Shown: positions 2,580 to 64,000 of the stretch, piece by piece | How the letters are laid out: every line of letters starts with the position of its first letter | Numbering within the stretch: position 1 is the first letter of the stretch | Virus record (IMG/VR): IMGVR_UViG_3300035235_000742 | Length of the DNA stretch: 64,000 bases | Source of the DNA: an uncultured virus (IMG/VR IMGVR_UViG_3300035235_000742) | Taxonomy: Duplodnaviria > Heunggongvirae > Uroviricota > Caudoviricetes > Crassvirales | Direction: 5' to 3' (one strand) | Program-made: the position numbers and the translations under genes | The notes under the pieces: generated by a model | The model's input: only the letters and a program-made list of their open reading frames with translations | The model's database searches: none | Told to the model about the DNA's origin: nothing

Positions 2580-3405
2580 AGCAATGCTAGCGCATAAGTA
2601 TAATGAAGATAAAGCAGATTACCCTGCATACATACAACCAAAACTAGACGGCGTACGTTGTCTATTTACTGCCAAAGGCGCGTTCTCTCGTGCTGATAAT
2701 CAGTTTATGAATGTAGAACACATTGAACAAGCTTTAAAGCCTTTCTTTGCAAAAAATCCTACAGCTGTGCTAGACGGCGAGCTATACAATCACGGACTAA
2801 AAGATGACTTTGAAAAGATTATATCTCTTGTTAAAAAGAGAAAACCAACTAAAGATGATAGAGTTGAAGCGGCTGAGCTAGTAGAGTATCACATTTATGA
2901 TGTAGCTAGTATGACAATAGCTAATTATACTACAAGATTAAATTATATAAATTCAATATCAAACTTTCAATGGAATCATATACTACGTAGAGTTGACACT
3001 AAAGTTGCATTAGACTTTGACGATGCTCTTAAAATGCACAAGAAAAACCTTAAACTAGGTTATGAAGGCAGTATATACAGATCATTTGAAGGTAAATACA
3101 AAGGTACAAGATCATGGGATCTTATGAAGTTTAAAGACTTTCACGATGCAGAAGCTACAATTATTGGCTATGAGATAGGTAAAGGCAAGCGTGAAGGTAC
3201 ACTAGGTAAATTTATTATGCAAGATTATGAAGGTAATGAGTTTGGCTGTCCTCCAGGTAAAGGCTACAATTACAAAGACTTAGCTAATATGCTAGAAAAT
3301 ATACACGACTACATCGGTCAGTATGCTACATTTACATACTTCGAACGAACTAAAGCAGGTAGTTACAGACATCCACATTATAAAGCAATAAGAAATTATG
3401 AGTGA
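2557..3405 (+). CDS. lig: ATP-dependent DNA ligase
   Basis: QPKLDGVR (KxDG adenylation motif), LDGEL, YEGSIYR, LMKFK, OB-fold C-terminus. Confidence 0.92.
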   Translation: MTDQENIKAMLAHKYNEDKADYPAYIQPKLDGVRCLFTAKGAFSRADNQFMNVEHIEQALKPFFAKNPTAVLDGELYNHGLKDDFEKIISLVKKRKPTKDDRVEAAELVEYHIYDVASMTIANYTTRLNYINSISNFQWNHILRRVDTKVALDFDDALKMHKKNLKLGYEGSIYRSFEGKYKGTRSWDLMKFKDFHDAEATIIGYEIGKGKREGTLGKFIMQDYEGNEFGCPPGKGYNYKDLANMLENIHDYIGQYATFTYFERTKAGSYRHPHYKAIRNYE

Positions 3406-4149: not shown

Positions 4150-4751
4150 ACCGTAATTTAAAATACTTAAACGATAATAGAATTATATATCGTAGGTACT
4201 CATCAGATATTCCAACGAAACAGTATAACTGGGGTTGGCATTATGCTGATGGTACTCATGGGTATTATGCTATGTTTAATAGTAGAGCTAAAATAAACAC
4301 TATTAGATCTTTAAAATGGCACTTATTGACTTTATGGTATTTAAACCCTGACTTAGATAAAGATGAGTTTACAAAACTAGCTAATTATATTATATATAAG
4401 AGTAACGGATTCGTTACTTTTAACATAGGTATTAAACTAATAAACAATATAATTGAAGACGTTTATAGACAAGACTTAGATACTCCGCCAAAGAATAGAC
4501 TACGTAAAATAGTATTTAAAGATGGATCAGGCTTAAGTACTGTAGAAAAACTAAGTTTAGTAGGTAGTATAATAGGTAAAAGTAAAATAAAAAAAGACGA
4601 CATATACGAAGCTATGTTATACATACATGAAGAAGGTAAGGTTACAGTTAAAAAACTAGCTAAAGCTCTAAAGTGTACAGAAAGAACTATATATAGAAAT
4701 ATGTGTAGTGAACTTAAAGAAGAAAAAGATTTATTAAATAAACAATTATGA
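4143..4751 (+). CDS. HTH DNA-binding protein (possible regulator or replication initiator)
   Basis: C-terminal HTH VTVKKLAKALKCTERTIYRNM. Confidence 0.7.
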   Translation: MSHRNLKYLNDNRIIYRRYSSDIPTKQYNWGWHYADGTHGYYAMFNSRAKINTIRSLKWHLLTLWYLNPDLDKDEFTKLANYIIYKSNGFVTFNIGIKLINNIIEDVYRQDLDTPPKNRLRKIVFKDGSGLSTVEKLSLVGSIIGKSKIKKDDIYEAMLYIHEEGKVTVKKLAKALKCTERTIYRNMCSELKEEKDLLNKQL

Positions 4752-5503
4752 AAAAGTATAATGTAAAGAACTATGTTAGATACAAAGAAGATCTTAAAAG
4801 ATCCAATGGTAGAATACCAATAAAAAACTTTATAGACTATACGCCTGCAGAGCTTAAAATAGTATTCTTACCTTTAGTAGAAAACATAGGTAGAAAATTT
4901 GCTACATCACAAGAAGCATCAGGTGTTATGTCTATTAATGATATAATACAAGAAGGTAGTTTTCAATTATGCAAAGCTGTAGATAAAATAGATAGATTAA
5001 GATTAATGCAGTCTGAAGATATTGAACAAACTTTAAAATCTTTTTTAGCTAAAAGAATTAGAGGCGGAATAAGAAGAGAAATAGACAAGAATAGAGGCAC
5101 AATGCGTATACCTGAGCATAAGCTAAATGAAATACGCAAAGACGGAGGTAAAGATAAGAAGATGGTTGCTATGTTTTTTAATAGTATATTCTTAAGTATC
5201 GATGCTAACCCTAATGATGACAATATGGTTTATCAAATACCTGATAAATCAGATCCTTATAATGAAACATTATTAAACGCTTACATTATGAGTTTATTAT
5301 CTAAAAATCTTGAATGGAACGAAATGTTAGTTTTAAGCAAGAGTTATGGTTTAGATGGACCTAAATGGTCAGCAAACGAAATAGCTACAGCCTTAGAGCT
5401 TAAGGGCGTATCTGCATATGTAAGAGTATCAGAGCTTAAAAAGCAAGCTGTACAAAAACTAATAGACAACGTAGATCACTCGCAAGTGCTTGACTACCTG
5501 TAA
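4748..5503 (+). CDS. phage-encoded sigma70-family RNA polymerase sigma factor
   Basis: Region 2 (DIIQEG..L.KAVDK; RIRGGIRREID..TMRIP) and region 4 HTH (EIATALEL..VRVSELKKQAVQKL). Confidence 0.85.
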   Translation: MKKYNVKNYVRYKEDLKRSNGRIPIKNFIDYTPAELKIVFLPLVENIGRKFATSQEASGVMSINDIIQEGSFQLCKAVDKIDRLRLMQSEDIEQTLKSFLAKRIRGGIRREIDKNRGTMRIPEHKLNEIRKDGGKDKKMVAMFFNSIFLSIDANPNDDNMVYQIPDKSDPYNETLLNAYIMSLLSKNLEWNEMLVLSKSYGLDGPKWSANEIATALELKGVSAYVRVSELKKQAVQKLIDNVDHSQVLDYL

Positions 5504-14034: not shown

Positions 14035-17000
14035 TTACTTTAGTTTTATTCCTTTTTTAAGTTTAATCCCACCTTTGAGTTTAACACCACTCTTAAGTTT
14101 AAAGCTACTGTTGGGTTTTTCTTCTTCTTGCTCATCTTTTATTTGCCACTTAGGCCAACCTAAAAACATTGCAACAGATTCCCAAGCTTCGTTGTCATCA
14201 GCAGTTGCATCTTTTAAATTTTCTATTTTTCTATACATTCTATCTAAAGGAACATTTGTTGTTGCTGATATTACCTTAGCCATAGATTCGTAAGCTGGAT
14301 TAGCAGGATTATAAGGACCCATGTTAAATACTTTTTCTCTAGCTTTCTTGCTATTGAAAGGATAACCAGCTTGTTCAATACCACTTAATTTTCTTTTAAT
14401 AGCAGGAGAAAAGTTTAATAACTGCTTATAAGCATCTGAATATTCTGGTCTTGACTTTTTAGTTCTATCATATATATCTATTCCTAAGTTTTTAATAACC
14501 TGAACACTAACACCAGCCATACCTAAACCTCTCAAGCTAGAGTCTAACATACCGTTAGCTGTTTTAACTAATTTCTTTTCTTGTTTTTTAGTAAGATCTT
14601 CGTTATCACCAGCTAGTAAAGAAAAAGTACCTTGCTGTAAAGTGTTAAAAATCATATTTTGTAAAAAACCATAATATGCTACTCTACCAATTCTAATTCT
14701 ATTGCTTTCAGCTAAGGTTTTACCTGGCATAGCTCTTTTATTAACCATGTCTTGAACATCTCTTTTTTGCATTCTAGCATACTGCATTGGAGTATTTACA
14801 TATTGTAATATGACTCTACCAATATCACTAGATTGTTGTTGAGATATTTTACTAGGATCAGAAGATTGCTGTGACATTTCAGAACTAGCTCTCCACTCTT
14901 TTAGTGCTTGAGCTTCTGCTTCTTTTAATGTGTATTTTCTAGGATCTGTTGGTGAGTCTACAATTCCATTTTTCATTAAATCATTAATTCTATTCCTATA
15001 AAACAAAGCGCCTCCAGAAGCTATAGCAAAACTATCAGCATACTTTGTTGGTGCATAACCTTTTTCTAGCATATAGTTTAATACTGCTTTAGCTTTGTTT
15101 TTAGATGTTTTAGCAGCATTAGCTATTTCAGATTCAGATATATTCAATTTAAGTCCATTACGTCTATCTACTAAGTAGTCAGAATTAATTAATTTAGAAT
15201 AATCTTTCCAATATTGAGGCTGATTAGCAAAAGCTTTACCTGCTTTAAGTGGATTATTAAAACTTTGATTTAGGAAATTAGCTGCTGATATAGTTTGAAG
15301 TAAAGCAGATCTAGTGTTTGCAAACATTGTAACTGCAGTTGATTGATTTATGTAATTCAACACATTATTAGTTAGCTTATTACCTCCGGGAGTTCTATTA
15401 CTTCCATTTTTCATCCTGGATAAACTATTTTCTAAAGCCTCTCTGTATTTAGCGCCATAAGCGGCTTCTAATTTATTTAAGTTATCTGGAGAAAATATAG
15501 CATTTTTATTGGTTTCAAACTCTTGTAAATATTTAGCTCTCTTTGTTGTTTGAAGTAAATCCATTAAATCAGTGGTTATAGTTCCTACAGCCCAATCTCT
15601 GCCTGGTTCTGAGTAACCGTCTCCTTTAGTAACTTCTAATATTTGATCTGCAAATGCTTGAAGTTTTGGATTACTTTCAATAACTTTATTTAGTTCTGCA
15701 AAATCAGTTTTAGAAAGTCCGGGTATTTCCTTACCAGTTTGACCCCACAGATAAGCTCTTACAGCTTGCTCGTTAGTAAAACCGCTTTCAGTCTTTAGTT
15801 TTAAATCTTTTGGAACTTGCAATTGTTCTTTTAAAGCTTTAAAATCAGCAAATAAATTAACTCTATCTTGTGATAAATTCTCTGTAGCTCTATTGTAAGG
15901 ATCTAATAAGTTTTTTTGATAAAAAGCCATATGAGCTTCACCCTCTTTACCTTTACCTAAAGTAGTATATAGTAGTCCAGTAAAATCTTCAGCAGATGAA
16001 GGTATAAAAAATCTTTGTCTTTTTTTAGTTGCACCTACTAATTTAGCCTTAACATCTGAATAAACTTTTTCACGACCAATACCAGAAGATTCTTCTAAGT
16101 TTTTATTAAATTCTTCAGATAAATTAAGAGAAGCTTTAGGTTTTTTAACTAATTGAGCAGTACCATTTAAATCATAAGCATTAAAAGCTGCTTTAGCGGC
16201 GTCAATATTACCAATAGCGTCATCAAAAAATGATATCTCATTAAAGCCTTCAGAATACTTTTCCACCATCCAATCAGCCTTTGCCTGTCCACTAGAATTG
16301 CCTAGTCCAACTACATTTTCTTCTTTAAAATTAGCTCCTTTAGATTTGAGCCACTTAAACAAAGGTCTTTGAGACTTTGGAGATCTAGCTGTTAAAACAT
16401 AAACGTTATCACCGCCTCTTTTGTTTATCATCTTTTTAGCCGCTTCCAGAAGTGGACCAGGTTTTCCATCAACTACTCTATCAAAGTCTTCAAAATTCAT
16501 TTCCCAACCTTGATCTTTTAATTTCTCGCCACTTTTAGCAAACTCAGCAGCGTTTAAAACTTTTATTTTTCCTTCTTTAATTAACTTTTTAGTTCCACTT
16601 GTTGGTTGTCCTTTTTTGTTTAACTTAACTTTAACACCATTAGACGCATAAACTTTACTGTTTGAATATAATAAAACATCGTCAGCATCAAGAACTCTTA
16701 GTTTTGGTAAAGCTTTATCTAAATCAATAACTTTTATAGGTTTTGGTTTTACTTTATCTAAAGGTATTCTACTATTAGAGTTAGCTTTATCTATTATTCC
16801 TAAAGGCTTTATAGTGCCTTTAACATCTAAAGTTTTTCCTTTGTCTTTACCTAGAACTTCACTAACTTCCGTAACGTTTTCTGGCCTAGTTGTTAAACCA
16901 GCTTCATTAATAACCTCAAGATTGTTTGTAACAACTTCATTAGTTTCTTTTATATTATTTAATATTCGTTTAACTTCAACGCCGCTACTACTCAGTTCAT

Positions 17001-20000
17001 TATCAGGTATTTTATTTATAGATTGTTTAGCTATTTCTATTCCTTTTTCATTAATTATCATATCAGCAACTGTAGATGCTTGATAATCTCCTGACAAAAT
17101 TATTGTATTAGCAGCTTCGTTTTTGCTTACAAAAGTATTTATATCTTTATTTTTAGAAAACTGAAACCCTCCTCCTTTTGCATCTTTTAACTTTTGATTT
17201 TGCTTAGTAGTCAACGCTTGAGAAAAATCTGAAACGTGGTTTTTTATTTCTATTTCAAGTTTTTCAGGATTATTTTTATATTTTGCTAATATTCTTAAAA
17301 ATCCCATGTTGGCATTAGATAATTCTTTCATATGCTCATTATGGAACTTTGTTCCAGTAGGATTGTCTATAGCGGGAGCTTCTCTTAAAGAAAGATATTC
17401 CATAGGAACTAATCCTTTTAATATGCTTTCTTGAGAATTAGTTTGCATTTGTAAAAAAGTAAAAATGTTTTCTATAGTTTCTTTAGTAGGGTTTTCTAAA
17501 TAGTTTTTAGCTAAATTGTTATATAACAAGCTAATTGCTTTTCTATTAGCTGTCATAGTTCTTTCATAAGCGTCAGGCAACATTTTGCCATTTGCATCAA
17601 CAAGTTTTGGATTACTTAATAATTGTCTACCTCTCGATGTTAAATACTGCTTATATGCTAACTTATCTGATGTTTCCCAATTAGGAAATTCTTCTTTAGC
17701 TTCTGCTAATGCTTTTGACCAACTCTTTTTTAATCCTGATTCATTGTAATTTGGTTGCCAAACATCATACATCCAGTCCTCAACCTCTAATGATGTCTTT
17801 TCATTACCAAACACATCGTTAAATTCTTTAACTGGCATATAGTTAGGATCTACAAAATCTTTTAAATTTTTATCAAACTTTTGATATTTTTCAGGAGTAA
17901 AACTACCTTTTATTTTACCTTTGCCTAATGTTATTTCTAAATAATTTCTAAAATCTGGAGGTAAAGAACTTAAAGATGGAAATAAAGATAATATTTTTTT
18001 ATTACTTTTAATAAATCTAGGTGCATAATCTTCATATGTTAAATTAACAGATCTATTACCTAAAGCCTTGTAATCTAATTTCCCCTTTTTAAAGCCAAAT
18101 ATTTTTTCTACTTCAGGGAAATTATCTTTAAAAAACTTAATTTCTTTTTCAGCTTTTTCTTGAGCTGCTTTTTCTATTTTTGAATCTGCTTTTTCTATAA
18201 CCCTAATATCTTCTTTAGCTTTGTTCCACCAATCTAGTATTTTATTTGCATCTCTAAAATCAACTATTAAACCTATTTTTAAATCTGTGTCTTTTAAACC
18301 ATATTTCTTTGCTAGCTTTTTTCTATCTACTTTTTTTCCTAAATTTTCAAAATAAGTAAGCTCTTCCATGAAACCTTCAAGAGATTTTGAAGGTAAAGCA
18401 TCTGATTTACCAGATTTTAAATCTTCTATTTGATTAGCTGTTAATTCTTTTACTCTTCTTATTTCATAGTTAGTTATGGCTTTGCCTTGTTGGTGTATAA
18501 GAGATTTTATTCTTTGATCAATTTTACCGTTATCTTTTAAAGTTTCAAAAACACCATCTTTTATACCAAAATATTCTAAAAATTTAGCTTCGTCAAAAGG
18601 TAGTTTAGTTTGCTCAACATTACCTTGCTTGTTGTTAATTCTACCTTTTTGCTCATAAAAAGCATTTAATAAATTTGGTTGAATACCAGTAGAAGTTCCT
18701 CTAATTTTTTCACTAGCACCTTTATCAGTTATGTTTTTAGGTAAATTATCATATAAAGCTCTAGCATTTTCACTAATAAATTTTTGAGAAAGTTCAACTT
18801 CTTTACCTGACAACCTAGTAGATGTTTTACCTTTAAAACTACCATTCTCATTGTTTACTTTCTTTTCACCAACCCCAAACTCTGCAGCAATGTTAGACTT
18901 GTCTAAAGTAGTTTTATAACTTTCAATACCTTCTTCAGCAAGGTCTAATTCTATAATTGCATTTTCTAGTTCTTCAGAAGATTTTTCAACATTTTTATAT
19001 AACCTAGTTGGAACTATTTCTCCTTTATTATCTATTAGACCAGCTTCTACATCTCCTAATATTCCACTCTGCTTGAGACTTGAAGAAGTGGGTTCTGTTA
19101 AATTAGCCATAGCTATTTCACCTGCTTCACCACCTAATCTATCCGATACAAACTCCAACTTACCTTCAGAGTTTTTCACCATTATTTTTCCTCCTTTTTC
19201 AAAAGCGTTAACCAGCTGGCTACTAAAACCTCTAGGCTGGTTTATATACTTACCAAAACTACCTCCACCTTCTGAAGGATCCCATCTACCAGTGTATTCA
19301 TATAGTTGTTTATCTAAATAATCCATAATACCTTCATAAGATACTTCTCCGTATTTTTCTTTGAGAACTCCAGTACTTCCAAAGCTTCTTCTTTCGTAGT
19401 TATTTATTAAGTCATACTTTTTAGCTTGATTATTCATGTATAGATTAAATCTATCTTCGTCTGTAACTAATTCTTTTAAGCTTTTTCCTGGATTATCTAT
19501 TGCTCTTTCAAAAATTCCTTTTTCAATCTTTTCATTTTCAGCTACAATTTCATCAGTAGTTTTTCTTGATAAATCAAAAGAACCTATAGCTTTCTTAGCT
19601 TCGTTAAACTTGTACCCTTCTCTTGCAGTTTCAGCTTCAGCATTACCCTCTTCTGTTAACCTTTCTCTTATATTAATTTTTTCTAATTCGTCACCTACTT
19701 TATTTAAGTTCCCATAAATACCGGATACTAAATTATTAACACTTTGGTTTTTATTACTACGCTGAACTATATTAGCTATTTGTCTTACAAGCTGATTTAC
19801 ATTTGTAGGTACATTGTTTTTTATACCTAGTTCTATACCAATACCTCTAAATTCTAATGATATTTCTTTTAATAGTGTATTAGCTACATCTGGGCTACTA
19901 TAAAAAACTTTAGGATTAGAAAGATATTCACCAACAAAAGATAAATATTCATTTGCCATTTCTCCAGTTGTTGACTGTTCAGATAAATTTATATTATATT

Positions 20001-23000
20001 TTTCTTTAATTGCATCATACAATTCTTTACCTCCTGTCTCGCCAAAGCTAGTGTTTTTAAATATCTCATCTATTTTAGTAATGAAGTTTCTTTTAGCCAT
20101 AGGATTAGCCTTGTAGTAGGCTTCAGTAGCCACATGCCCAAATTCATGAACTCTAACACCAGGATTCCACCTACTGAGATCAAATGCCATTACATTAGTC
20201 TCTGGATCATATTGTGCTTTAGCTTTTTGATTCTCTTTAGAAAAGTTATTATTTCTAAATTGCTCGCCACTACCAAACTTTACTTCAACACCCTCAAAAG
20301 ATGGATCAATTAATTGTATTGCTTTAGTCCAGTTATCAGTATACTTTTCTTTAAAGTTAGTTTGAAACTGTTCAAATTCTGAATTATATTTTTCTGGATT
20401 TGTTTCTTTTAGTTTTATATTAGGAGGTGTTAATTCTTTTATATGCATTTCTGCATTAATTAAGTTGTCAACATTAAATTTATCTACAGCATATTGATCA
20501 TATTTTGCTTTTTCTGCTTCATTTAGTTCATCGTATTTCTTTTCTTTACTAGAAGGCTGTTCTATTATTCTCCCGTCTGAATCAACTTTTTGTATCCCTT
20601 GCTCTTTGCCTGTTATTACATCCATTTTATACTGTAACTTGTCAGAAACTCTTTGTTTCATTCCAGTAGTCATTAAGTCTGTTTTTTTCAAGTGCATTCC
20701 TCCAAAAAACCCAAAAGTCATAGCATTAACTATATATCTTTGCTCTTCCTCATCCCAACCATCTTCGCTATTGTATAATTCTTTAAACTTGTTACCAAAA
20801 CTAGCAGCATCACCAGTCATGAAAGCTTCAAAACTAGGCTCTGCTACACCAGCTACTTCAGAAGCCAGTGTCATTACAGCACCATTTTTTATTACAGCAT
20901 TAAACATAGGCTGCATATATGTAAAATTCTTTTTAAAAGGAATAAAGTTTTTAGTAAGCTCTCCAAAAGTATAAAAACTAGTTCCTCCTAAAGGCTTCAT
21001 ATCTAATATAGTCTGCATCTTAGCTTCTTCTACTATAGATCCAATAAAAAGTCTACCTAATGGCGATAATGTTTTAACCCATTTAGCGTAGCCAAAAGCG
21101 TTTAATACACCACCACCCATTGCTAGCGCAGGCAGTTTAGGTATAAATGTTCCTATACCACCGGAGGCTTGCTCTAAAACATTTTGTTTAATATTTTCTT
21201 TTTGAATACCTGTAAGCTTTATACTACCACCATCTGCTAAGCTTTCTAGTTCTGTAGCACTAGCCTTTATAGCTGAATTAATGTTATCAATATTAGCTCT
21301 AGCACCACCTCTTTGTCCTTCTACAAAATACTCTGCATCATCTGGGTTTGAGTCAAATACAATCATATTGTATGTCTCTTTAACAGTGCTCTTAAGTAAG
21401 TTTTCCCAAAATCCAGGTTTAACTATAGACCCAACATCTACATTTCCAGCGTATAAGTTCCTATAGGTTTGAGCCAAAGTTTCTATTTCATTAGCTTCTT
21501 CATTGTACATCTTAATTGCGTCAACATCTTTATCGCTAGCCATACCAGACATCTCATCAAAAAAGCCTGAAAAGTCTTCAGAATCAATACCTAATCTTCT
21601 TAAATCAAATAAAGATATTTTTAAATCACCATTTTTATCAGGTTTTAAACCAGCTTGTTTTAACTTAGGCCAAGCCATGCTTGATCCATACTTCACACTC
21701 CAACTCTTAGGATCACCATTAAATTTTAACGTTATATTAGAGTAATTGCCTTTTTTGCTAAATTCTTGTAGATTTTTTAGTTGATTATTGAACAAAACGC
21801 CTATAGCTTCTCTTTGAGATATTTTAGGGTTACTTTCTAAAACCCTAGTTAAAGCAGGTTCTAAATTATTAGTTGCATTTTGAGACTTTTGCTTTAGATC
21901 ATCAACAGTACCTTGAGACATACCGTATCTATTAAAAAACTGGCCTACTAACTCAGAGTTTGTAGTTACTGTTTTTATTTCTTTATATTTCGCAGCTCCA
22001 GGTTCCCCAGGTATAGATCCTACATTAATTATTTCAGTGCTAGTCTCTGTTCCTGCGTCTTTAATTTGACTAAGCTTTGCATCGTATTGCCTTTGAACGT
22101 CGTCCCTTTCTCTTTTTAGTATTTTAGCTTGATTAGATCTTCTTTCATCATTAAACTCTTTAGATTCTTCTTTATTTTCATTCTCTTCAATCTTATTGTT
22201 ATAATAATTAAGCTGCTTAGTTAATTCTATTTCTTCAAAATTTAGTTTTTGAATTTCTTTTTGCTTTGGTGTTAAACTAGCATCAAAAGAGTTGATAACA
22301 AATTCTTCAAAATCAGGATCTAAATCAACTGAGTTAGACTCTAAAATGTTTTTCATTTTATAATCTTGCTCTACTTTGTATTTATTAGATTCTCTTAGTT
22401 TTTCATATAAAAAATTAAAAGAACTAGGATATATTGCTAAATTACTTTCTTTTTGAAGCTTATTAAATAAACTTTCTTTTATTCTATCGTGATCCTCATC
22501 GCTTATAGTAAAAGATTCGGCGCCTAAACCTTTCTCATAACCCACGCCATACATATATGGGTTGTTGAATGCTTCTCTTTGTAATATATCTAAGTCAGTT
22601 ATTAAATTAACTACTTCTTTTTTATTTGCTGGTTTAGCATTTTGATAATTTTCGGTTTTAAAAGTATCTTTAGAGTAAGTTCCATCTTGATAAACTCCAG
22701 CTTTTATAACTTCACCTAATCTTATATTATCAAAAACACCACCACTTGATATTTTTCCTATTTTATTTTTTATAAAAGAACTATCATCGTCTTTTTCAGG
22801 GTTATCATTTATAAAATTAATAAAATTATCATAAGCTGTTTTACTTTTTTCTAAAGCATCTTCCTCTGGAGTCAAATCATCAGATAGTAGATCGTTGTAG
22901 GCCCCACTTTTTTTACTATTATATATAGTGCCTAACTCTATTATTTTATTGTTTCCAGAACTAATATTTGTTGCTTTAATTTCGTCACTACCAGGTGTTG

Positions 23001-23406
23001 CTTGTTCAAAAGTAAAACCAGGATATAGTTCTCTTAAATCAGACACTATCTCTTGTTCTTCTTTTAATTGAAATTCTTCAAAAGATATTTTTGCTTCAAC
23101 TTCTTTAATAGGTTTTATTTCATAAACATCTTTATGTATTTTCAAATAATCTTCTAAAGTTTCATTTTCTTTTAATTTCCCATTTATTTCTTCAGCTGTA
23201 TATGTTTTTCCTTTGTATTTATATTTAGATTTAGCAGGAGGATCAGTGTCATTTCCAACTTCAATTACTTCAGTTTCTTCAACCTCTTCAGTATCGTTGT
23301 CAATATCGGCTTCAGCATCTGGTTCGTATTCTTTCATTTTTAAAATGAAGTCATCTTCTGATAATCCTTGATCTATTAAATCTTTAGCATAATCTTCTCT
23401 TGTCAT
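14035..23406 (-). CDS. giant (3123 aa) multi-domain putative internal virion/ejection protein with zincin-like and HAD phosphatase-like domains
   Basis: Last gene of the structural arm; HEFGH; HAD motifs LDADDV/LTARS/K/FFDD. Confidence 0.8.
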   Translation of the reverse strand: MTREDYAKDLIDQGLSEDDFILKMKEYEPDAEADIDNDTEEVEETEVIEVGNDTDPPAKSKYKYKGKTYTAEEINGKLKENETLEDYLKIHKDVYEIKPIKEVEAKISFEEFQLKEEQEIVSDLRELYPGFTFEQATPGSDEIKATNISSGNNKIIELGTIYNSKKSGAYNDLLSDDLTPEEDALEKSKTAYDNFINFINDNPEKDDDSSFIKNKIGKISSGGVFDNIRLGEVIKAGVYQDGTYSKDTFKTENYQNAKPANKKEVVNLITDLDILQREAFNNPYMYGVGYEKGLGAESFTISDEDHDRIKESLFNKLQKESNLAIYPSSFNFLYEKLRESNKYKVEQDYKMKNILESNSVDLDPDFEEFVINSFDASLTPKQKEIQKLNFEEIELTKQLNYYNNKIEENENKEESKEFNDERRSNQAKILKRERDDVQRQYDAKLSQIKDAGTETSTEIINVGSIPGEPGAAKYKEIKTVTTNSELVGQFFNRYGMSQGTVDDLKQKSQNATNNLEPALTRVLESNPKISQREAIGVLFNNQLKNLQEFSKKGNYSNITLKFNGDPKSWSVKYGSSMAWPKLKQAGLKPDKNGDLKISLFDLRRLGIDSEDFSGFFDEMSGMASDKDVDAIKMYNEEANEIETLAQTYRNLYAGNVDVGSIVKPGFWENLLKSTVKETYNMIVFDSNPDDAEYFVEGQRGGARANIDNINSAIKASATELESLADGGSIKLTGIQKENIKQNVLEQASGGIGTFIPKLPALAMGGGVLNAFGYAKWVKTLSPLGRLFIGSIVEEAKMQTILDMKPLGGTSFYTFGELTKNFIPFKKNFTYMQPMFNAVIKNGAVMTLASEVAGVAEPSFEAFMTGDAASFGNKFKELYNSEDGWDEEEQRYIVNAMTFGFFGGMHLKKTDLMTTGMKQRVSDKLQYKMDVITGKEQGIQKVDSDGRIIEQPSSKEKKYDELNEAEKAKYDQYAVDKFNVDNLINAEMHIKELTPPNIKLKETNPEKYNSEFEQFQTNFKEKYTDNWTKAIQLIDPSFEGVEVKFGSGEQFRNNNFSKENQKAKAQYDPETNVMAFDLSRWNPGVRVHEFGHVATEAYYKANPMAKRNFITKIDEIFKNTSFGETGGKELYDAIKEKYNINLSEQSTTGEMANEYLSFVGEYLSNPKVFYSSPDVANTLLKEISLEFRGIGIELGIKNNVPTNVNQLVRQIANIVQRSNKNQSVNNLVSGIYGNLNKVGDELEKINIRERLTEEGNAEAETAREGYKFNEAKKAIGSFDLSRKTTDEIVAENEKIEKGIFERAIDNPGKSLKELVTDEDRFNLYMNNQAKKYDLINNYERRSFGSTGVLKEKYGEVSYEGIMDYLDKQLYEYTGRWDPSEGGGSFGKYINQPRGFSSQLVNAFEKGGKIMVKNSEGKLEFVSDRLGGEAGEIAMANLTEPTSSSLKQSGILGDVEAGLIDNKGEIVPTRLYKNVEKSSEELENAIIELDLAEEGIESYKTTLDKSNIAAEFGVGEKKVNNENGSFKGKTSTRLSGKEVELSQKFISENARALYDNLPKNITDKGASEKIRGTSTGIQPNLLNAFYEQKGRINNKQGNVEQTKLPFDEAKFLEYFGIKDGVFETLKDNGKIDQRIKSLIHQQGKAITNYEIRRVKELTANQIEDLKSGKSDALPSKSLEGFMEELTYFENLGKKVDRKKLAKKYGLKDTDLKIGLIVDFRDANKILDWWNKAKEDIRVIEKADSKIEKAAQEKAEKEIKFFKDNFPEVEKIFGFKKGKLDYKALGNRSVNLTYEDYAPRFIKSNKKILSLFPSLSSLPPDFRNYLEITLGKGKIKGSFTPEKYQKFDKNLKDFVDPNYMPVKEFNDVFGNEKTSLEVEDWMYDVWQPNYNESGLKKSWSKALAEAKEEFPNWETSDKLAYKQYLTSRGRQLLSNPKLVDANGKMLPDAYERTMTANRKAISLLYNNLAKNYLENPTKETIENIFTFLQMQTNSQESILKGLVPMEYLSLREAPAIDNPTGTKFHNEHMKELSNANMGFLRILAKYKNNPEKLEIEIKNHVSDFSQALTTKQNQKLKDAKGGGFQFSKNKDINTFVSKNEAANTIILSGDYQASTVADMIINEKGIEIAKQSINKIPDNELSSSGVEVKRILNNIKETNEVVTNNLEVINEAGLTTRPENVTEVSEVLGKDKGKTLDVKGTIKPLGIIDKANSNSRIPLDKVKPKPIKVIDLDKALPKLRVLDADDVLLYSNSKVYASNGVKVKLNKKGQPTSGTKKLIKEGKIKVLNAAEFAKSGEKLKDQGWEMNFEDFDRVVDGKPGPLLEAAKKMINKRGGDNVYVLTARSPKSQRPLFKWLKSKGANFKEENVVGLGNSSGQAKADWMVEKYSEGFNEISFFDDAIGNIDAAKAAFNAYDLNGTAQLVKKPKASLNLSEEFNKNLEESSGIGREKVYSDVKAKLVGATKKRQRFFIPSSAEDFTGLLYTTLGKGKEGEAHMAFYQKNLLDPYNRATENLSQDRVNLFADFKALKEQLQVPKDLKLKTESGFTNEQAVRAYLWGQTGKEIPGLSKTDFAELNKVIESNPKLQAFADQILEVTKGDGYSEPGRDWAVGTITTDLMDLLQTTKRAKYLQEFETNKNAIFSPDNLNKLEAAYGAKYREALENSLSRMKNGSNRTPGGNKLTNNVLNYINQSTAVTMFANTRSALLQTISAANFLNQSFNNPLKAGKAFANQPQYWKDYSKLINSDYLVDRRNGLKLNISESEIANAAKTSKNKAKAVLNYMLEKGYAPTKYADSFAIASGGALFYRNRINDLMKNGIVDSPTDPRKYTLKEAEAQALKEWRASSEMSQQSSDPSKISQQQSSDIGRVILQYVNTPMQYARMQKRDVQDMVNKRAMPGKTLAESNRIRIGRVAYYGFLQNMIFNTLQQGTFSLLAGDNEDLTKKQEKKLVKTANGMLDSSLRGLGMAGVSVQVIKNLGIDIYDRTKKSRPEYSDAYKQLLNFSPAIKRKLSGIEQAGYPFNSKKAREKVFNMGPYNPANPAYESMAKVISATTNVPLDRMYRKIENLKDATADDNEAWESVAMFLGWPKWQIKDEQEEEKPNSSFKLKSGVKLKGGIKLKKGIKLK

Positions 23407-58896: not shown

Positions 58897-60312
58897 TTAT
58901 TGTTTTATTATTGTTGTGGCGCCTACAGAAACATTTGGAGCTACGTATATCTTATAATCTATATTTGACCAAAATCCTGGCAATGAGCTTACTGCCAAGG
59001 TTATTCCGGCGTTAAATAAGTTTGCTGCAGGATCTCCTGGTGAGAAACTTCCCCCTATATCTCCAGCATTAAGAGTTGTTTTAAACCAGCTTGTTTTGTC
59101 TGGAACTTTATCGTAGAAAGCAAAATAAAAATAACCACCAAAATTATTTGTAAATGGTATTGATATATCACCAACGCTATTTGCTACAACTTTATTCAAA
59201 GAACTAGTATTAGCTGCCCAAGCATTTATTAAAGCTTGAACCGCTGATGGGCTCTGATAAGTTGCCGATTGACCATAAAAATAAGGGTAATACCCTGTAA
59301 CAGTTCTTGTGGCTGACGAAAAATTATTTCTTGCCGCTTGTGGTTTGTTAACACCATTACCTGGCGTTCTAGTATCATCTACACCTTTACTGTCTTTCTT
59401 TGCGAGTCCTTCGTCATAGTCACCTTTAGAAGTATAACTTACAGTTGAGGATGTGTTATTGCCAGTAGGAGCTGGCATTGTAAAAGTGTCAGAATAGTTT
59501 TCAGAGTAAGACTGATTAGCCCTGTTGGGTGATGCAAACGTAAACTGAGGATCAAATGCTTGCATTAAACCTGCGTTTACTATTGTCCCAGCTGGATTAC
59601 TAACAGATGCTAGTTCAGTACCATCTCTAGAAACTTGTAACCTAGTGTAAACTCCCGCATCATTTTTAATAGCTCCATAAACTAAATTAACACCAACACC
59701 AACACCAACTTCTTTAGCGGGTATACTTGTTGGACTTAAACTTCTTGTGCTTATACTGTAGTCGGGTAGTACTGTTGGGAATAATAATGTATCCCACATT
59801 AATGAGTTTGTATTTTCATTTATAGAAGATAATAGAGTATTAGCTTCAAAACCACCTACTTTTTCAACTGTTGCAGGATCTCCTGTCAATGTTGATTCAT
59901 ATACTATATTTATATTAGCCGTTGTAGCTGTAACTGGGTCTTGCTCTACTTTAACACCGTTTTGGTAGTTTATAGTATTAGCAGGGTCTACAGTGTCTAC
60001 TGTATTCTTTTGTAATGACACACCGCCACCACCACCATCGATGTATTCCAACGCGTCTTCAGCTTGATTAACAGCTAAAACTTGACCTGCTGTTCCAAAC
60101 CCGCTTATCCCAGTTAATTGTATGCTATTTCCAGTTCCTAAAGATATAGGCTCTATAGTAGTTATGTTCGATTGAACATACTTCATTAATTGATCTAAGT
60201 CAGTAGTTTTTGTTTTAAAATTAGGATCACTACTTAGCGCATCTGATAGTACTATCTCATCTTTTTTATCTAATGGAGCTTTCTTAAAAGGGTAAGTTGT
60301 TATTATTGGCAT
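58897..60312 (-). CDS. fibre/structural protein
   Basis: 471 aa; GTAGQVLAVN motif; C-terminal domain paralogous to the neighbour. Confidence 0.65.
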   Translation of the reverse strand: MPIITTYPFKKAPLDKKDEIVLSDALSSDPNFKTKTTDLDQLMKYVQSNITTIEPISLGTGNSIQLTGISGFGTAGQVLAVNQAEDALEYIDGGGGGVSLQKNTVDTVDPANTINYQNGVKVEQDPVTATTANINIVYESTLTGDPATVEKVGGFEANTLLSSINENTNSLMWDTLLFPTVLPDYSISTRSLSPTSIPAKEVGVGVGVNLVYGAIKNDAGVYTRLQVSRDGTELASVSNPAGTIVNAGLMQAFDPQFTFASPNRANQSYSENYSDTFTMPAPTGNNTSSTVSYTSKGDYDEGLAKKDSKGVDDTRTPGNGVNKPQAARNNFSSATRTVTGYYPYFYGQSATYQSPSAVQALINAWAANTSSLNKVVANSVGDISIPFTNNFGGYFYFAFYDKVPDKTSWFKTTLNAGDIGGSFSPGDPAANLFNAGITLAVSSLPGFWSNIDYKIYVAPNVSVGATTIIKQ

Positions 60313-61338
60313 TTATCTAGTTTTAATCTTGCCTAATGGTATTTTTAAAGAAATTTTATTTTCTTTTGACGTACCAGTGGTTCCAACTGTACCTAGTCCA
60401 TACCCTTCGGCCATGCTCATGTTTTTAGATCGTGAATAGTTTAAAGATATTCCAGATTTCTTATGTTTAACACCTACGTTAAATCCTGTAGTAAGTAAAG
60501 AGTTAGAAGATCCTGTTAAATGTTCTGGATTAATTCTATCAGGTCCTGCAAAATCACTACTACGTGATGGTTTGTTCCCAAGCGTTCTAGACATTGAACC
60601 TGTTACTCCAATATTAGCAGAAAGAGGTTTATTTTTTAATTTTTTAATATTATCTGTACCTATAGAAGAATTTAAACTTAATTTAGCGTATGGTTTTATT
60701 TTCTTTGTTCTTAAATTATTAAAGTTTAATCCACCTTCTATACTTAAGTTGTTATTAAGAGCATAATTTTTGTTTGATCTATTACCAGCACTTCTAGTTC
60801 CAAAAGATTGTTTAAAACCTGCGTTAAAATTAAGTCCAGTTACTTTTTTATCAAATTTACCACCTGAAGAAAGTTCTGAACCAGTGGTTAATCCACCAGT
60901 ATTTGGATCAAAAACCCCTTTTGTGTTGGGTACGTATGATGCTTTTGATCTAAGTAGTGAGTTTGGAGCTATAGTAAGGTCCGATACTATGTTAATTGGT
61001 CTATTACCACTTTTGTCTTTAGATGTTTTTAAATTACCTCTTGGTATATTTACCTTTATGTTAGTTCTATTAGTATTCATGATACCAAGGTTGCCTTTTT
61101 CTTTAGCACCTTCAAAAGACGGTGTCATATTCAACTTATCAAATGGATCTGTGCTTGAACCTTCCCACCCAGCGTTGCCTGTCTCAGCAATAACTCTTTC
61201 ACTTAGTGGTGTAAAACCTGAATTAGTACCACCTGACTGTTTAGAAACCTCAATAGTTGGCGTATCTATTAAATGCTTAGCGCGCTTCCTCCCTCTTCTT
61301 CTCTTCTGTATAGGATTTTGTTTCTGATCTTGTACCAT
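60313..61338 (-). CDS. hypothetical protein with amphipathic beta-strand-rich C-terminus
   Basis: 341 aa, first gene of the - arm. Confidence 0.6.
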   Translation of the reverse strand: MVQDQKQNPIQKRRRGRKRAKHLIDTPTIEVSKQSGGTNSGFTPLSERVIAETGNAGWEGSSTDPFDKLNMTPSFEGAKEKGNLGIMNTNRTNIKVNIPRGNLKTSKDKSGNRPINIVSDLTIAPNSLLRSKASYVPNTKGVFDPNTGGLTTGSELSSGGKFDKKVTGLNFNAGFKQSFGTRSAGNRSNKNYALNNNLSIEGGLNFNNLRTKKIKPYAKLSLNSSIGTDNIKKLKNKPLSANIGVTGSMSRTLGNKPSRSSDFAGPDRINPEHLTGSSNSLLTTGFNVGVKHKKSGISLNYSRSKNMSMAEGYGLGTVGTTGTSKENKISLKIPLGKIKTR

Positions 61339-61362
61339 AATTAGTTTTTTAGTCTTAATATA

Positions 61363-61390
61363 AGATATTACATGCGTTTACTCGTTTTTA
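61363..61390 (-). promoter_or_regulatory. class B promoter-like motif at the head of the structural arm
   Basis: TAAAaacgagtaaacgcatGTAAT on the - strand. Confidence 0.55.
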
Positions 61391-61413
61391 CCTATTAGTA
61401 TATAATATAAAAG

Positions 61414-61458
61414 GTGACATTAGCCCCTTACTATTCTAGATCTAAGGGCCTATTGTCA
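61414..61458. repeat. palindromic site, copy 2
   Basis: TGACATTAGCCCCTTA-N12-TAAGGGCCTATTGTCA (14/16 inverted repeat). Confidence 0.8.
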
Positions 61459-61661
61459 TGGTTTTAAAAAGAATAAAAGAAATAGGGAAGTATAGTGTAT
61501 CACCACAAAATTTTATTGTGTTTCATTTTAAAAAAACGCGATTTTGTTTTGCGGGTTCCCCCTTTTTCAGTGTAGAATTGCGTAATCGTTTGCCATTTCA
61601 ATACGATATTGCGCATACCTTTTACGTATTTACTATGGGCCCCACTAACTACCTCAACACT

Positions 61662-61699
61662 TTACAGATTTAATACGATGTTAAATGGATAATAATAGT
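61662..61699 (+). promoter_or_regulatory. class A promoter-like motif
   Basis: TTACAGATTTAATACGAtgttaaatgGATAATaatagt. Confidence 0.75.
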
Positions 61700-61722
61700 A
61701 TAAACAAATAAATAATTACAAT

Positions 61723-61971
61723 ATGATTAATAACTTAAAATATAATAAACTTAATTCAATTCTAAATGACAACTCTGAAATCCATTATATAATCGATTCA
61801 TCAGAATTCTTTTCAGAAAATAATATTAATCCTTCTCAATTTAATAATAATAAATTTATCTTATTCGAATATACATCTCACTTACCAGAAACTATTCAAC
61901 TATTAAACCAAAACAATATTAACTATTCTATTCATACTGACGAATTAGACTTACAATATATAATAATCTAA
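61723..61971 (+). CDS. hypothetical early protein
   Basis: 82 aa, N/I-rich, first ORF of the + arm. Confidence 0.6.
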   Translation: MINNLKYNKLNSILNDNSEIHYIIDSSEFFSENNINPSQFNNNKFILFEYTSHLPETIQLLNQNNINYSIHTDELDLQYIII

Positions 61972-62084
61972 CTAACTAATACATATCACTCATTATAATA
62001 AACATCTGATATTCAGGGTAAATTATAGAGGAGTCACGCGATACACCTAACAACTAATAATAACTAATAAATAAAACTACACTT

Positions 62085-62122
62085 TTACAAACTAAATACG
62101 AACTAAAACGGATAATAATAAT
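62085..62122 (+). promoter_or_regulatory. class A promoter-like motif
   Basis: TTACAAACTAAATACGAactaaaacgGATAATaataat. Confidence 0.8.
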
Positions 62123-62147
62123 ATAAACTAAATAACAAATATAAACT

Positions 62148-62390
62148 ATGAAAAATATAAATAATAACTTAACAACAAAAAGATTTGTAATAAGAAAATC
62201 TTTACTCGGTACTAATACAATAGTAACATTTACTAACAAAAAAGATATAACTTTTACTTATGATCACGACGAGATTTACTCAACATTTCAACAAAAGTTT
62301 GAAGAAATGGCTTGTTTTCAACAGTACAAATCTTATACAAATAGTAATACTGTTCCAAAATTCTGTAGAGAATTAAGTACTCAATCTTAA
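62148..62390 (+). CDS. hypothetical early protein
   Basis: 80 aa; RFVIRKSLLG...YDHD. Confidence 0.7.
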   Translation: MKNINNNLTTKRFVIRKSLLGTNTIVTFTNKKDITFTYDHDEIYSTFQQKFEEMACFQQYKSYTNSNTVPKFCRELSTQS

Positions 62391-62397
62391 AACTAAA

Positions 62398-62507
62398 AGT
62401 CGTAGTTGATAATTATACTTTAGCGACTCTAAACAATGTGAACATATAATTAAGTCTTAGTTGATAGTAATACTTTAGAGACTATAAATATAACGAACAT
62501 ATTACTC
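62398..62507 (+). ncRNA. two tandem 55-nt H-type pseudoknot RNA units
   Basis: Direct repeat with three compensatory base-pair substitutions across two helices. Confidence 0.7.
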
Positions 62508-62513
62508 AACACA

Positions 62514-62560
62514 TAACTGAAATGGTTGTAAGTGAGATTCGATTTCTCACTCAGTTACAA
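62514..62560 (+). ncRNA. tRNA-like mini-element (acceptor-like stem plus T-arm, no anticodon arm)
   Basis: TAACTGA-AATGGTTGTAA-GTGAGA-TTCGATT-TCTCAC-TCAGTTA-CAA. Confidence 0.55.
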
Positions 62561-62592
62561 ACTAAATACTATCCAAAGTGGATAATATAATA
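62555..62592 (+). promoter_or_regulatory. class A promoter-like motif
   Basis: TTACAAACTAAATACTAtccaaagtgGATAATataata. Confidence 0.78.
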
Positions 62593-62612
62593 AACTAATA
62601 AATTAAATAACT

Positions 62613-62813
62613 ATGTATAATTCAAATTCTCCTTCAAACTGGTCATGGAAAAAAGCTTTCGATGAAATGAACAAAACAGTAAATCAAGCTGAACTCACTC
62701 AGCAATCTATAAATCACGTACTCAATTATCCTGGTGAAGCTAATGGTGTCTTTATGACACTAAGTAAATCACAACAAGATGATGTTTACGATATACTAAA
62801 TCAAATATTATGA
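62613..62813 (+). CDS. hypothetical early protein
   Basis: 66-aa ORF. Confidence 0.65.
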   Translation: MYNSNSPSNWSWKKAFDEMNKTVNQAELTQQSINHVLNYPGEANGVFMTLSKSQQDDVYDILNQIL

Positions 62814-62944
62814 CTCATAACTTAAATACTACAATAGATAAAATAGCTTTATCTGAATTCAATACTCACTATGCTCAATTAGGTAATAATGAAAAACAGT
62901 GGTGTCATGATGAAATGATAAACAATGATAAATGGTTAAAATAA
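62810..62944 (+). CDS. small hypothetical protein (44 aa)
   Basis: Read manually; ATGA-coupled. Confidence 0.55.
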   Translation: MTHNLNTTIDKIALSEFNTHYAQLGNNEKQWCHDEMINNDKWLK

Positions 62945-62950
62945 ATAAAT

Positions 62951-63052
62951 ATGAAAAAGAAAACAGATTTTACTACAGATGGATTTGAAGTACTAGGTTA
63001 CTTTTTATTAACAGCAATAACAGTAATATTACTTGCTTACATCACAAACTAA
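62951..63052 (+). CDS. small membrane peptide (33 aa)
   Basis: Read manually; single TM. Confidence 0.5.
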   Translation: MKKKTDFTTDGFEVLGYFLLTAITVILLAYITN

Positions 63053-63079
63053 ATACGAATTAAAATGGATAATAATAAC
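63042..63079 (+). promoter_or_regulatory. class A promoter-like motif (leaderless ATG at 63080)
   Basis: TCACAAACTAAATACGAattaaaatgGATAATaataac-ATG. Confidence 0.8.
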
Positions 63080-63334
63080 ATGAAACATATACAAACAGAA
63101 AACTTAACAATAATACTATATCCTAATAATGAAGGTGGTAAGTTACAAATCTTTAACAAACACCGTAGTCCTTATGGTTACTCACCTCGTTCACTTATTG
63201 TATCTCTGTATGGTGTAGAAACAAAACAGCTTACGTACAACTATGTACAACAAGAAGTAGACAAAGTGTATTCTACTTTCAACTACGATGAAATACACGA
63301 ATTAATAAATAAAGTAAATAATGAAAATAAATAA
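63080..63334 (+). CDS. hypothetical early protein
   Basis: Start moved from 63065 to 63080 (position 39 of the motif). Confidence 0.65.
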   Translation: MKHIQTENLTIILYPNNEGGKLQIFNKHRSPYGYSPRSLIVSLYGVETKQLTYNYVQQEVDKVYSTFNYDEIHELINKVNNENK

Positions 63335-63464
63335 TATAGCTCCAATAATATTTGGAATACTAATGACTATGTTGATAGTATTTGCAACATCTTGTAAAAC
63401 TACACAAGATATAGTACACAATCACACTCTTAAATATCCATGTCCAACTTTTAAAAACAAATAA
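63321..63464 (+). CDS. small lipoprotein (47 aa)
   Basis: Read manually: signal peptide ending FATS-C. Confidence 0.55.
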   Translation: MKINNIAPIIFGILMTMLIVFATSCKTTQDIVHNHTLKYPCPTFKNK

Positions 63465-63685
63465 TGAAACTAACTAACGAAGAAAAACTTAAAATTACTT
63501 GGAGAGTAGTTGACTCACTATACGAAAAACTAGCTAACGAGCTAGAGTATGAACTTGAAGAACATAATGACTTCACAGAAACTAACGATGCTTACTTTTA
63601 TTTATTCGATGAAATGACTGTAAAGATAGTAAAGTATATGAGAAGTGAACTATTCTCTCCAAAAACTCATGAAGATTTGAAATAA
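63464..63685 (+). CDS. hypothetical early protein
   Basis: 73-aa ORF. Confidence 0.65.
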   Translation: MKLTNEEKLKITWRVVDSLYEKLANELEYELEEHNDFTETNDAYFYLFDEMTVKIVKYMRSELFSPKTHEDLK

Positions 63686-63686
63686 T

Positions 63687-63848
63687 ATGAATGATAAAGA
63701 AGCATTACAAAAAATAGTATATATTACTAATCATTATGTAAATAATACAGATTGGTGGAAAAGAGATAGAGAAGAATACATTGAAGAATTAATAAAATTC
63801 TTAGAAGAAAATGTAATACATGGTGCAATGGATAATAACTATAAATAA
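63687..63848 (+). CDS. small hypothetical protein (53 aa)
   Basis: Read manually. Confidence 0.55.
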   Translation: MNDKEALQKIVYITNHYVNNTDWWKRDREEYIEELIKFLEENVIHGAMDNNYK

Positions 63849-63856
63849 TAAACAAA

Positions 63857-64000
63857 ATGACAGAACAACAAGCAATTGAAGCAATCGCTAATGATATACA
63901 GGATGGTATCTACGGTTGGACACAAAAATGTGGAACAGAGTGGCAGAAGTGGACATACTCACTAATGCAAGCTAAGAAAATATATGAAGGTGATTTAATA
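63857..64000 (+). CDS. hypothetical protein, runs off the window end
   Basis: MTEQQAIEAIANDIQDG...; open to 64000. Confidence 0.55.
   Translation, partial: MTEQQAIEAIANDIQDGIYGWTQKCGTEWQKWTYSLMQAKKIYEGDLI

Follow-up and report, generated by a model that had tools for sequence, protein, structure and literature searches.

Genomic Context of the Early-Region Locus

The window, that is, the whole 64,000-nt stretch of phage DNA that was analysed, codes for terminase, portal, GroEL/GroES, and replication genes as well as a phage sigma factor (4748-5503). Its terminase is 64% identical to that of an uncultured phage, 45% to those of Flavobacterium elemo phages, 42% to that of Maribacter phage Panino, and 37% to those of Cellulophaga phages. 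Since these relatives belong to phages of Flavobacterium, Maribacter, and Cellulophaga, the host is probably a marine member of the Flavobacteriaceae. The minus strand of the window also encodes a 3123-aa protein (14035-23406) for which PHROG, Pfam, and PDB sequence searches gave no match and in which none of the DxDxD-type motif forms tried was present; it could be an injected virion protein.

On the plus strand of the early arm, an 80-aa ORF (62148-62390) is followed by two tandem pseudoknot units (62398-62451 and 62453-62506), by a tRNA-like module overlooked in the initial annotation (62514-62557), and by a 66-aa ORF (62613-62813). The pseudoknot pair lies amid repeated plus-strand motifs of repeat families D1/D2, which are putative early promoters. 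One copy occupies 62087-62116, another is located directly behind the tRNA-like module (62557-62586), and further copies are found at 61664, 63044, and ~63811. Transcription would start about 7 nt after the GATAAT hexamer of the motif, and where an ATG follows, it most often does so 6 nt after the hexamer (83 cases). A putative non-sigma70 promoter motif recurs on the plus strand at 766, 2242, 9105, 61671, 62094, 62564, 63051, and 63814, often in a leaderless arrangement with an ATG 6 nt after the hexamer. No plus-strand terminator was found within 60000-64000 of the window.

The 80-aa early protein has 1926 homologues, in which Y38, H40, D41, C56, Y60, Y63, and T64 are near-invariant, and it has no PHROG, Pfam, or PADLOC match. 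Its structural model has a pLDDT of 91.5 and a best structural Z of 3.9, with no ToxN or CptN fold among the matches listed, a lack of fold assignment that does not in itself show a new fold. The gene is thus not recognisably a type III toxin, as far as sequence and model can tell, and it is presumably co-transcribed with the RNA downstream. The absence of an adjacent toxin gene, claimed from the outset, holds on the other side as well, as neither the 66-aa protein nor the other downstream ORFs (44-89 aa) match a toxin family in PHROG, Pfam, or PADLOC; the 66-aa protein matches no family in these sets.

A Pseudoknot Family Defined by Covariation

The two units repeat with a period of 55 nt and are separated by a 1-nt linker at 62452. 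In unit 1, a duplicated variant, P1 is formed by 62398-62402 and 62424-62428, P2a by 62411-62415 and 62447-62451, and P2b by 62419-62421 and 62440-62442, with a proposed third strand at 62405-62407. Unit 2, which represents the common form, has the same layout shifted by 55 nt. Of the 13 differences between the units, counted over 55 positions, six fall in the proposed helices as three two-sided compensatory pairs (core 5/27, 15/53, and 17/51), bearing out the six compensatory substitutions first described. When 13 substitutions were placed at random in 200,000 trials, all 12 pairs were kept with at least three two-sided changes at a frequency of 1.25e-4, though this control is post hoc given that the structure was derived from the same unit pair. 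Against model R1, for which it was one of the building sequences, unit 2 scores 86 bits, and no third copy was found in the window. It is proposed that the tandem is a local duplication that doubles the dose.

This type A family comprises 77 distinct cores, 72 of 54 nt and five with one or two extra bases, with 11 P1 haplotypes and 11 P2a haplotypes. The cores were collected by pattern scans and gene-anchored scans and kept if at least four of five positions were paired; one degenerate unit with indels (L608) was excluded. Because the carrier genomes are close relatives, these counts are not independent. The carriers are uncultured phages related to Flavobacteriaceae podoviruses. Among 36 variants, both partners vary in eight of ten pairs and 99.7% of cells are paired, a score reached in 0 of 500 shuffles, and controls slid along the sequence pair at 27-44%. 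An unbiased test was provided by a metagenome pattern that fixes loop bases and leaves pairing free. P1 was fully paired in 116 of 119 scored matches and paired at four of five positions in the other three, and P2a was fully paired in all 117 complete matches (one cut-off match was left unscored). Selection on an H-type pseudoknot in the early non-coding region, as originally claimed, is therefore strongly supported by helix covariation. The second helix, however, had been drawn with seven base pairs; five are conserved, while the inner TA/TA extension, paired in no more than 22 of 36 variants, was dropped.

When parts of the loops were in turn left free, L1 was as expected in 34 of 35 matches, and among P1-paired matches GAA was as expected in 34/34 and L2 in 33/33. 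Loop invariance is thus more than ascertainment alone, and folding alone can explain most of the invariant bases. The G-U wobbles in the helices favour an RNA read from the plus strand. A peptide-coding role is unlikely, as each reading frame is open in at most 41 of the 72 cores.

The Rfam comparison suggested at the outset (ToxI, CptI, TenpI, SAM-V, and preQ1) was carried out, and no Rfam model matched the unit, the window, or 20 related loci. BLASTN against deposited phages gave no real match for the unit, models for the type A and type B knots (see below) gave no convincing copy in phi38:1, phi13:2, elemoE, Panino, or MW202828, and the matches from a 14-base pattern search were mostly due to chance. 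No description of the motif was found in the literature. The readable tables of Fremin et al. 2023 (PMC10690425) contain no match to it, although the 10,000 viral candidates in the alignments of that study may include an automated prior listing. Type A is a real and well-supported phage RNA family with a defined triple-helix core, and it is apparently uncatalogued.

Parts of the knot region are contained in 24 RNA-type runs. In four runs, each from a different study, the knots are covered by contigs in X1, X6, and X16 but hardly at all in X4, and one X16 contig spans 62323-62473 with one difference. Such contigs record presence only, with no strand, ends, or level and with possible DNA carry-over, and they hint that the region is transcribed. 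Contig cover is low over the tRNA-like module, which was not taken as evidence.

The Triple-Helix Core

Type A folds as a compact H-type pseudoknot with a P1 of 5 bp, a P2a of 5 bp, and a P2b of 3 bp. The last of these, core 22-24:43-45, is absent from the earlier description. From the SAM-V structure as given in PMC6061858, the pairs U22-A45, U23-A44, and U24.G43 were predicted, with G8-U9-U10 as the third strand. A natural variant found after this prediction carries C22-G45 alone, and a second variant in another background combines C10, C22, and G45, exchanging a U.A-U triple for C.G-C. Although variants at 22:45 make up only two of 54 matches and the triple swap comes from one record, the swap supports placement of the first loop in the major groove as U.A-U triples. 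The triple 9/23/44 is invariant and hence outside covariation testing.

The A-rich strand probably runs along P1. Changes outside the helices had been assigned to this connector, yet position 39 of the connector changes in step with pair 5:27 throughout the 72 54-nt cores and possibly forms a base triple with it. Pair 6:26 alternates between U.G, A.A, and G.A, and both this alternation and the tracking of 5:27 by position 39 may be partly due to descent. The loop GUUG could also pair with the 3′ tail NNRC, with 8:58 paired in 92 of 100 cases and 9:57 in 96 of 100. Variation in this pairing is confined to one side, and the pairing competes with the triplex; it may represent an alternative fold.

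A sister knot of about 45 nt, type B, takes the slot of type A in other genomes or precedes it (loci L559, L570-L573, L575, L577, L583, L584, L586, L596, L600, and L662-L696). The two types have AGUU, UUU, UAAAY, and GAA in common, and the P2 of type B runs unbroken through the UUU/GAA helix. In 28 type B variants, 99.6% of cells are paired and four of ten pairs change on both sides. The covariation of this P2 lends independent support to a triplex core shared by both types. Directly upstream of type A in 12 contexts lies a third candidate pseudoknot, smaller still (~33 nt), whose second helix covaries (loci L469, L421, L503, L478, L434, L427, L403, and L465). Additionally, a conserved multi-stem non-coding element with no Rfam match is found beside type A in L125 (~3070-3135), L144, L400, and L401.

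A Shuffled Cassette of RNA Elements

The tRNA-like module behind the window tandem (62514-62557) consists of a 7-bp acceptor-like stem, an 11-nt loop with an invariant GG, and a 6-bp T stem with a TTCGA loop, and it lacks an anticodon arm. Across 29 distinct variants, which had been picked for pairing, 100% of cells are paired and eight of 13 pairs vary in both partners; none of 500 shuffles reaches this score. ARAGORN does not call the module. It is a candidate RNase P site. The acceptor stem, GG loop, and T arm recur in further tRNA-like RNAs (L677 ~1045-1120, L681, L686, L674, L476, and L671), where they are separated by inserts that vary widely in length (up to ~150 nt). These RNAs are tmRNA-like in outline, and ARAGORN calls none of them.

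After 15 truncated cases were dropped from 160, 145 type A contexts were classified by regular expressions, which undercount promoters, in genomes that are related to one another. Downstream of type A there is a start codon within 45 nt in 80 contexts, in which no cutter was recognised, a tRNA-like module in 39, a long hairpin in seven, a second type A in three, a promoter in three, a hammerhead in two, and something else in 11. Upstream there is the 80-aa gene in 54, a promoter in 39, type B in 16, the small third knot in 12, type A in four, and something else in 20. Three type A contexts consist of promoter, knot, and tRNA-like module without an upstream gene. Type B is followed by a tRNA-like element in 22 of 39 contexts and by type A in 14. 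A triple helix thus stands immediately 5′ of a tRNA-like element in the window, in 39/145 type A contexts, and in 22/39 type B contexts.

Type I hammerheads are also present in the early region (L430 1440-1489 on the minus strand, L163 ~3055-3135, and L587), once without a pseudoknot, and hammerhead-like cores occur in L557, L558, and L593. A local search matches L430 to Hammerhead_1 with E 2.5e-5; the score of 27.9 bits, seen only in a 141-nt search, falls short of the gathering score of 34. A conserved, long imperfect hairpin moves about the early region as well (window ~61415-61459; elsewhere L554, L578, L592, L593, L594, L597, L598, and L601) and is a possible RNase III site or end protector.

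Gene-Like Retention of the Knot

Fifty-six loci were picked by the 80-aa gene, and all 36 of those with at least 1 kb of downstream sequence carry a knot at a single site (type A in 26, type B in eight, and both in two), despite having from zero to eight promoter motifs each (Fisher p 1.5e-6, ignoring kinship). Among the 20 shorter loci, a knot is found in 14 and none in six. In 26 long records picked for carrying a knot, type A occurs alone in 15, type B alone in 10, and both in one; no record has more than one type A locus and one type B locus, except that one repeats type B at both ends. In 25 of the 36 loci, the knot comes immediately after the 80-aa gene. In eight others the long hairpin is in that place, and the knot is retained further on in all eight. 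In nine of the 36 loci, the knot lies directly behind a promoter rather than the 80-aa gene, and such promoter-proximal copies start 7-25 nt after the hexamer. The knot therefore changes place within the early region whichever gene lies beside it.

A single locus per genome, a position that is not fixed, independence of the downstream gene, and the exchange of A for B are together more in keeping with a small RNA gene than with an operator or riboswitch. A single copy is also compatible with a cis element needed on one transcript.

Function of the Knot RNA

The explanation preferred here, though tentatively, is that the locus yields a nuclease-resistant small RNA that is released by RNase P or a hammerhead and binds a conserved host protein in trans. 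Early promoters would transcribe the knot RNA. Cleavage by host RNase P at the tRNA-like module or by a hammerhead, or else trimming by 3′ exonucleases that stall on reaching the knot, would set its 3′ end. The product may be a nuclease-resistant RNA of 55-70 nt that binds a protein common to all hosts, and universal retention points to such a target rather than to a patchy toxin. Components of the RNA-decay or transcription machinery would be more likely targets than a patchy defence toxin, and binding would favour early phage expression. The gene-like retention and the candidate release signals downstream speak for this reading; the 80 type A contexts that lead into a start codon with no recognised cutter speak against it.

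A less likely but possible alternative is that the knot acts in cis as an end cap, guarding the 3′ end of the upstream early mRNA after cleavage by RNase P or a hammerhead, or the 5′ end at a transcript start. This would account for the frequent position of the knot directly behind the 80-aa gene, with the long hairpin there in eight other loci, for the lack of a plus-strand terminator, for the 36 of 39 type B contexts that continue into a tRNA-like module or type A, and for the copies placed just after the promoter hexamer. In addition, hairpins consisting of an acceptor stem and T arm are reported to be cut by E. coli RNase P (PMC11143913). However, the knot occurs once per genome even though several early promoters exist, it is kept elsewhere when the hairpin follows the 80-aa gene, and the units made up of promoter, knot, and tRNA-like module have nothing upstream to protect. 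The trans-acting and cis-acting readings are not exclusive, because the same fold would protect ends in both.

An unlikely explanation is a small-molecule aptamer that derives from, or converges on, the SAM-II/SAM-V fold and has an altered pocket, serving as a riboswitch or as a sponge for a metabolite or immune signal. The link to these riboswitches, mentioned in the initial annotation, holds at the level of the fold, as all are H-type pseudoknots whose first loop makes major-groove U.A-U triples. According to the supplement of PMC6061858, the first loop AGUUGA is the same as in the bhmT SAM-V RNA, A41-Y42-G43-A44-A45 of type A is in register with A45-C46-U47-A48-A49 of SAM-V, and the same two U.A-U triples are predicted. 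Furthermore, the invariant G11, A12, U13, U19, A20, and A47 are unexplained by helices. The ligand contacts, on the other hand, are changed. SAM-binding U47 is replaced by G, which is present at position 43 in 72/72 cores (mostly fixed by the pattern, but in 34/34 when left free), A50 is replaced by C or U at position 46, and the G21-C46 pair is absent. G43 can also pair with invariant U24, which would close the pocket. The Rfam SAM-V and SAM-II models do not match the unit, and type A is phage-borne and has no expression platform before methionine or SAM genes; neither a terminator nor start-site occlusion is found downstream, where the genes vary. Moreover, the extra junction is absent from type B. 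One specific form of this idea, if anything less likely than the aptamer in general, is a phage-made sponge in which a SAM-V-like fold with a rebuilt pocket (U to G) would capture a host nucleotide signal or cofactor of antiviral defence and be freed by host RNase P from its tRNA-like tag, with A and B as alternative versions. If true, it would be the RNA counterpart of phage sponge proteins.

The initial annotation had raised an antitoxin mimic or decoy as a possibility. A trans-acting RNA that binds a host factor remains the leading model, but mimicry of a type III antitoxin in the manner of pseudo-ToxI is very unlikely, as the array is poorly supported by copy number, linker, and loop sizes. 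Like ToxI, CptI, and TenpI, type A has at its centre a small H-type pseudoknot (about 50-55 nt) whose loop is rich in A, and the phage RNA could act in trans; TenpI can comprise two non-identical repeats (PMC13682666), and A and B could serve as alternative decoys. However, judged by the antitoxin features given in PMC13682666, PMC12283969, PMC5086642, and PMC3594212, type A lacks a repeat array, single-stranded tails, a terminator, and a toxin gene. The family is normally single-copy, with tandems of type A in three of 145 contexts, contrary to the antitoxin array proposed at first. Type III antitoxins bind their toxins via single-stranded tails (PMC5086642), whereas the 1-nt linker in the window leaves no toxin-binding tails and B-A pairs are separated by 2-4 nt. 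L1 is 8 nt in type A and 1 nt in CptI and TenpI, and loop sizes differ from those of ToxI as well. In phiTE pseudo-ToxI, one repeat is reported to be inactive (PMC3594212), whereas a single copy is the rule for type A.

On the host side, a check for homologues of the unit had been suggested, and none were found by model and pattern searches of GTDB and of the 151-genome sets. A GTDB pattern scan gave 60 loci, of which five are real, all on MAG contigs of 0.9-3.2 kb that are probably phage carry-over, and the models gave chance matches only in sets of 151 genomes drawn from the class and from the family of a Lutibacter genome, representing the inferred host family. A ToxN search of 251 genomes from the likely host family, with no positive control, gave no match at the cut-off. 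AbiF-like (Abi_2) genes are present in 16 of 201 such genomes and could offer a target; no similar knot was found near 17 Abi_2 loci. Universal retention is also a poor fit to a patchy target.

Least likely of all is a new self-cleaving ribozyme that cuts early transcripts, which would suit the slots held in common with hammerheads, the fixed length, and the many invariant loop bases; however, the knot usually adjoins a separate cutter, its 8-nt L2 leaves no room for HDV P3/P1.1 elements, and position 42, the equivalent of the HDV catalytic C, is C in 43/69 cores, U in 26/69, and U in all type B. HDV-like and theta ribozymes form a nested double pseudoknot (P3, P1.1) with an invariant catalytic C, whereas type A has no nested double pseudoknot, no invariant C, and no Rfam match.

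Comparison With Known RNA Systems

Type A resembles xrRNAs in being a compact pseudoknot of viral origin from which a stable non-coding RNA could arise. However, xrRNAs block 5′-3′ exonucleases, and none of 101 genomes from the likely host family gave an RNase J match at the cut-off (control 8/14), making an exonuclease block of this kind of low plausibility on the host side.

The triple helix of MALAT1 and MEN-beta is an ENE that engages a terminal A tract. As in some type A contexts, a U.A-U triplex is directly followed by a tRNA-like element without an anticodon, and in these RNAs the tRNA-like mascRNA is described as processed by RNase P (PMC13170383). Type A differs in that it is an H-type knot in a bacterial virus, is often promoter-proximal, and may have a hammerhead as its cutter or none.

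In an abundant group of uncultured marine phages, every genome tested thus carries a 54-nt triple-helix RNA or its sister knot, within a shuffled cassette that also includes hammerheads and tRNA mimics lacking an anticodon. Natural variants define the fold of this small RNA, and natural control alleles are available, making it testable in vitro without phage culture. To our knowledge, few phage RNAs are known to act against hosts, namely tRNAs, pseudo-ToxI, and RNA anti-CRISPRs. If the respective readings are true, either a stable inhibitor RNA acting in trans or a MALAT1-like making of protected RNA ends would be new for bacterial viruses.
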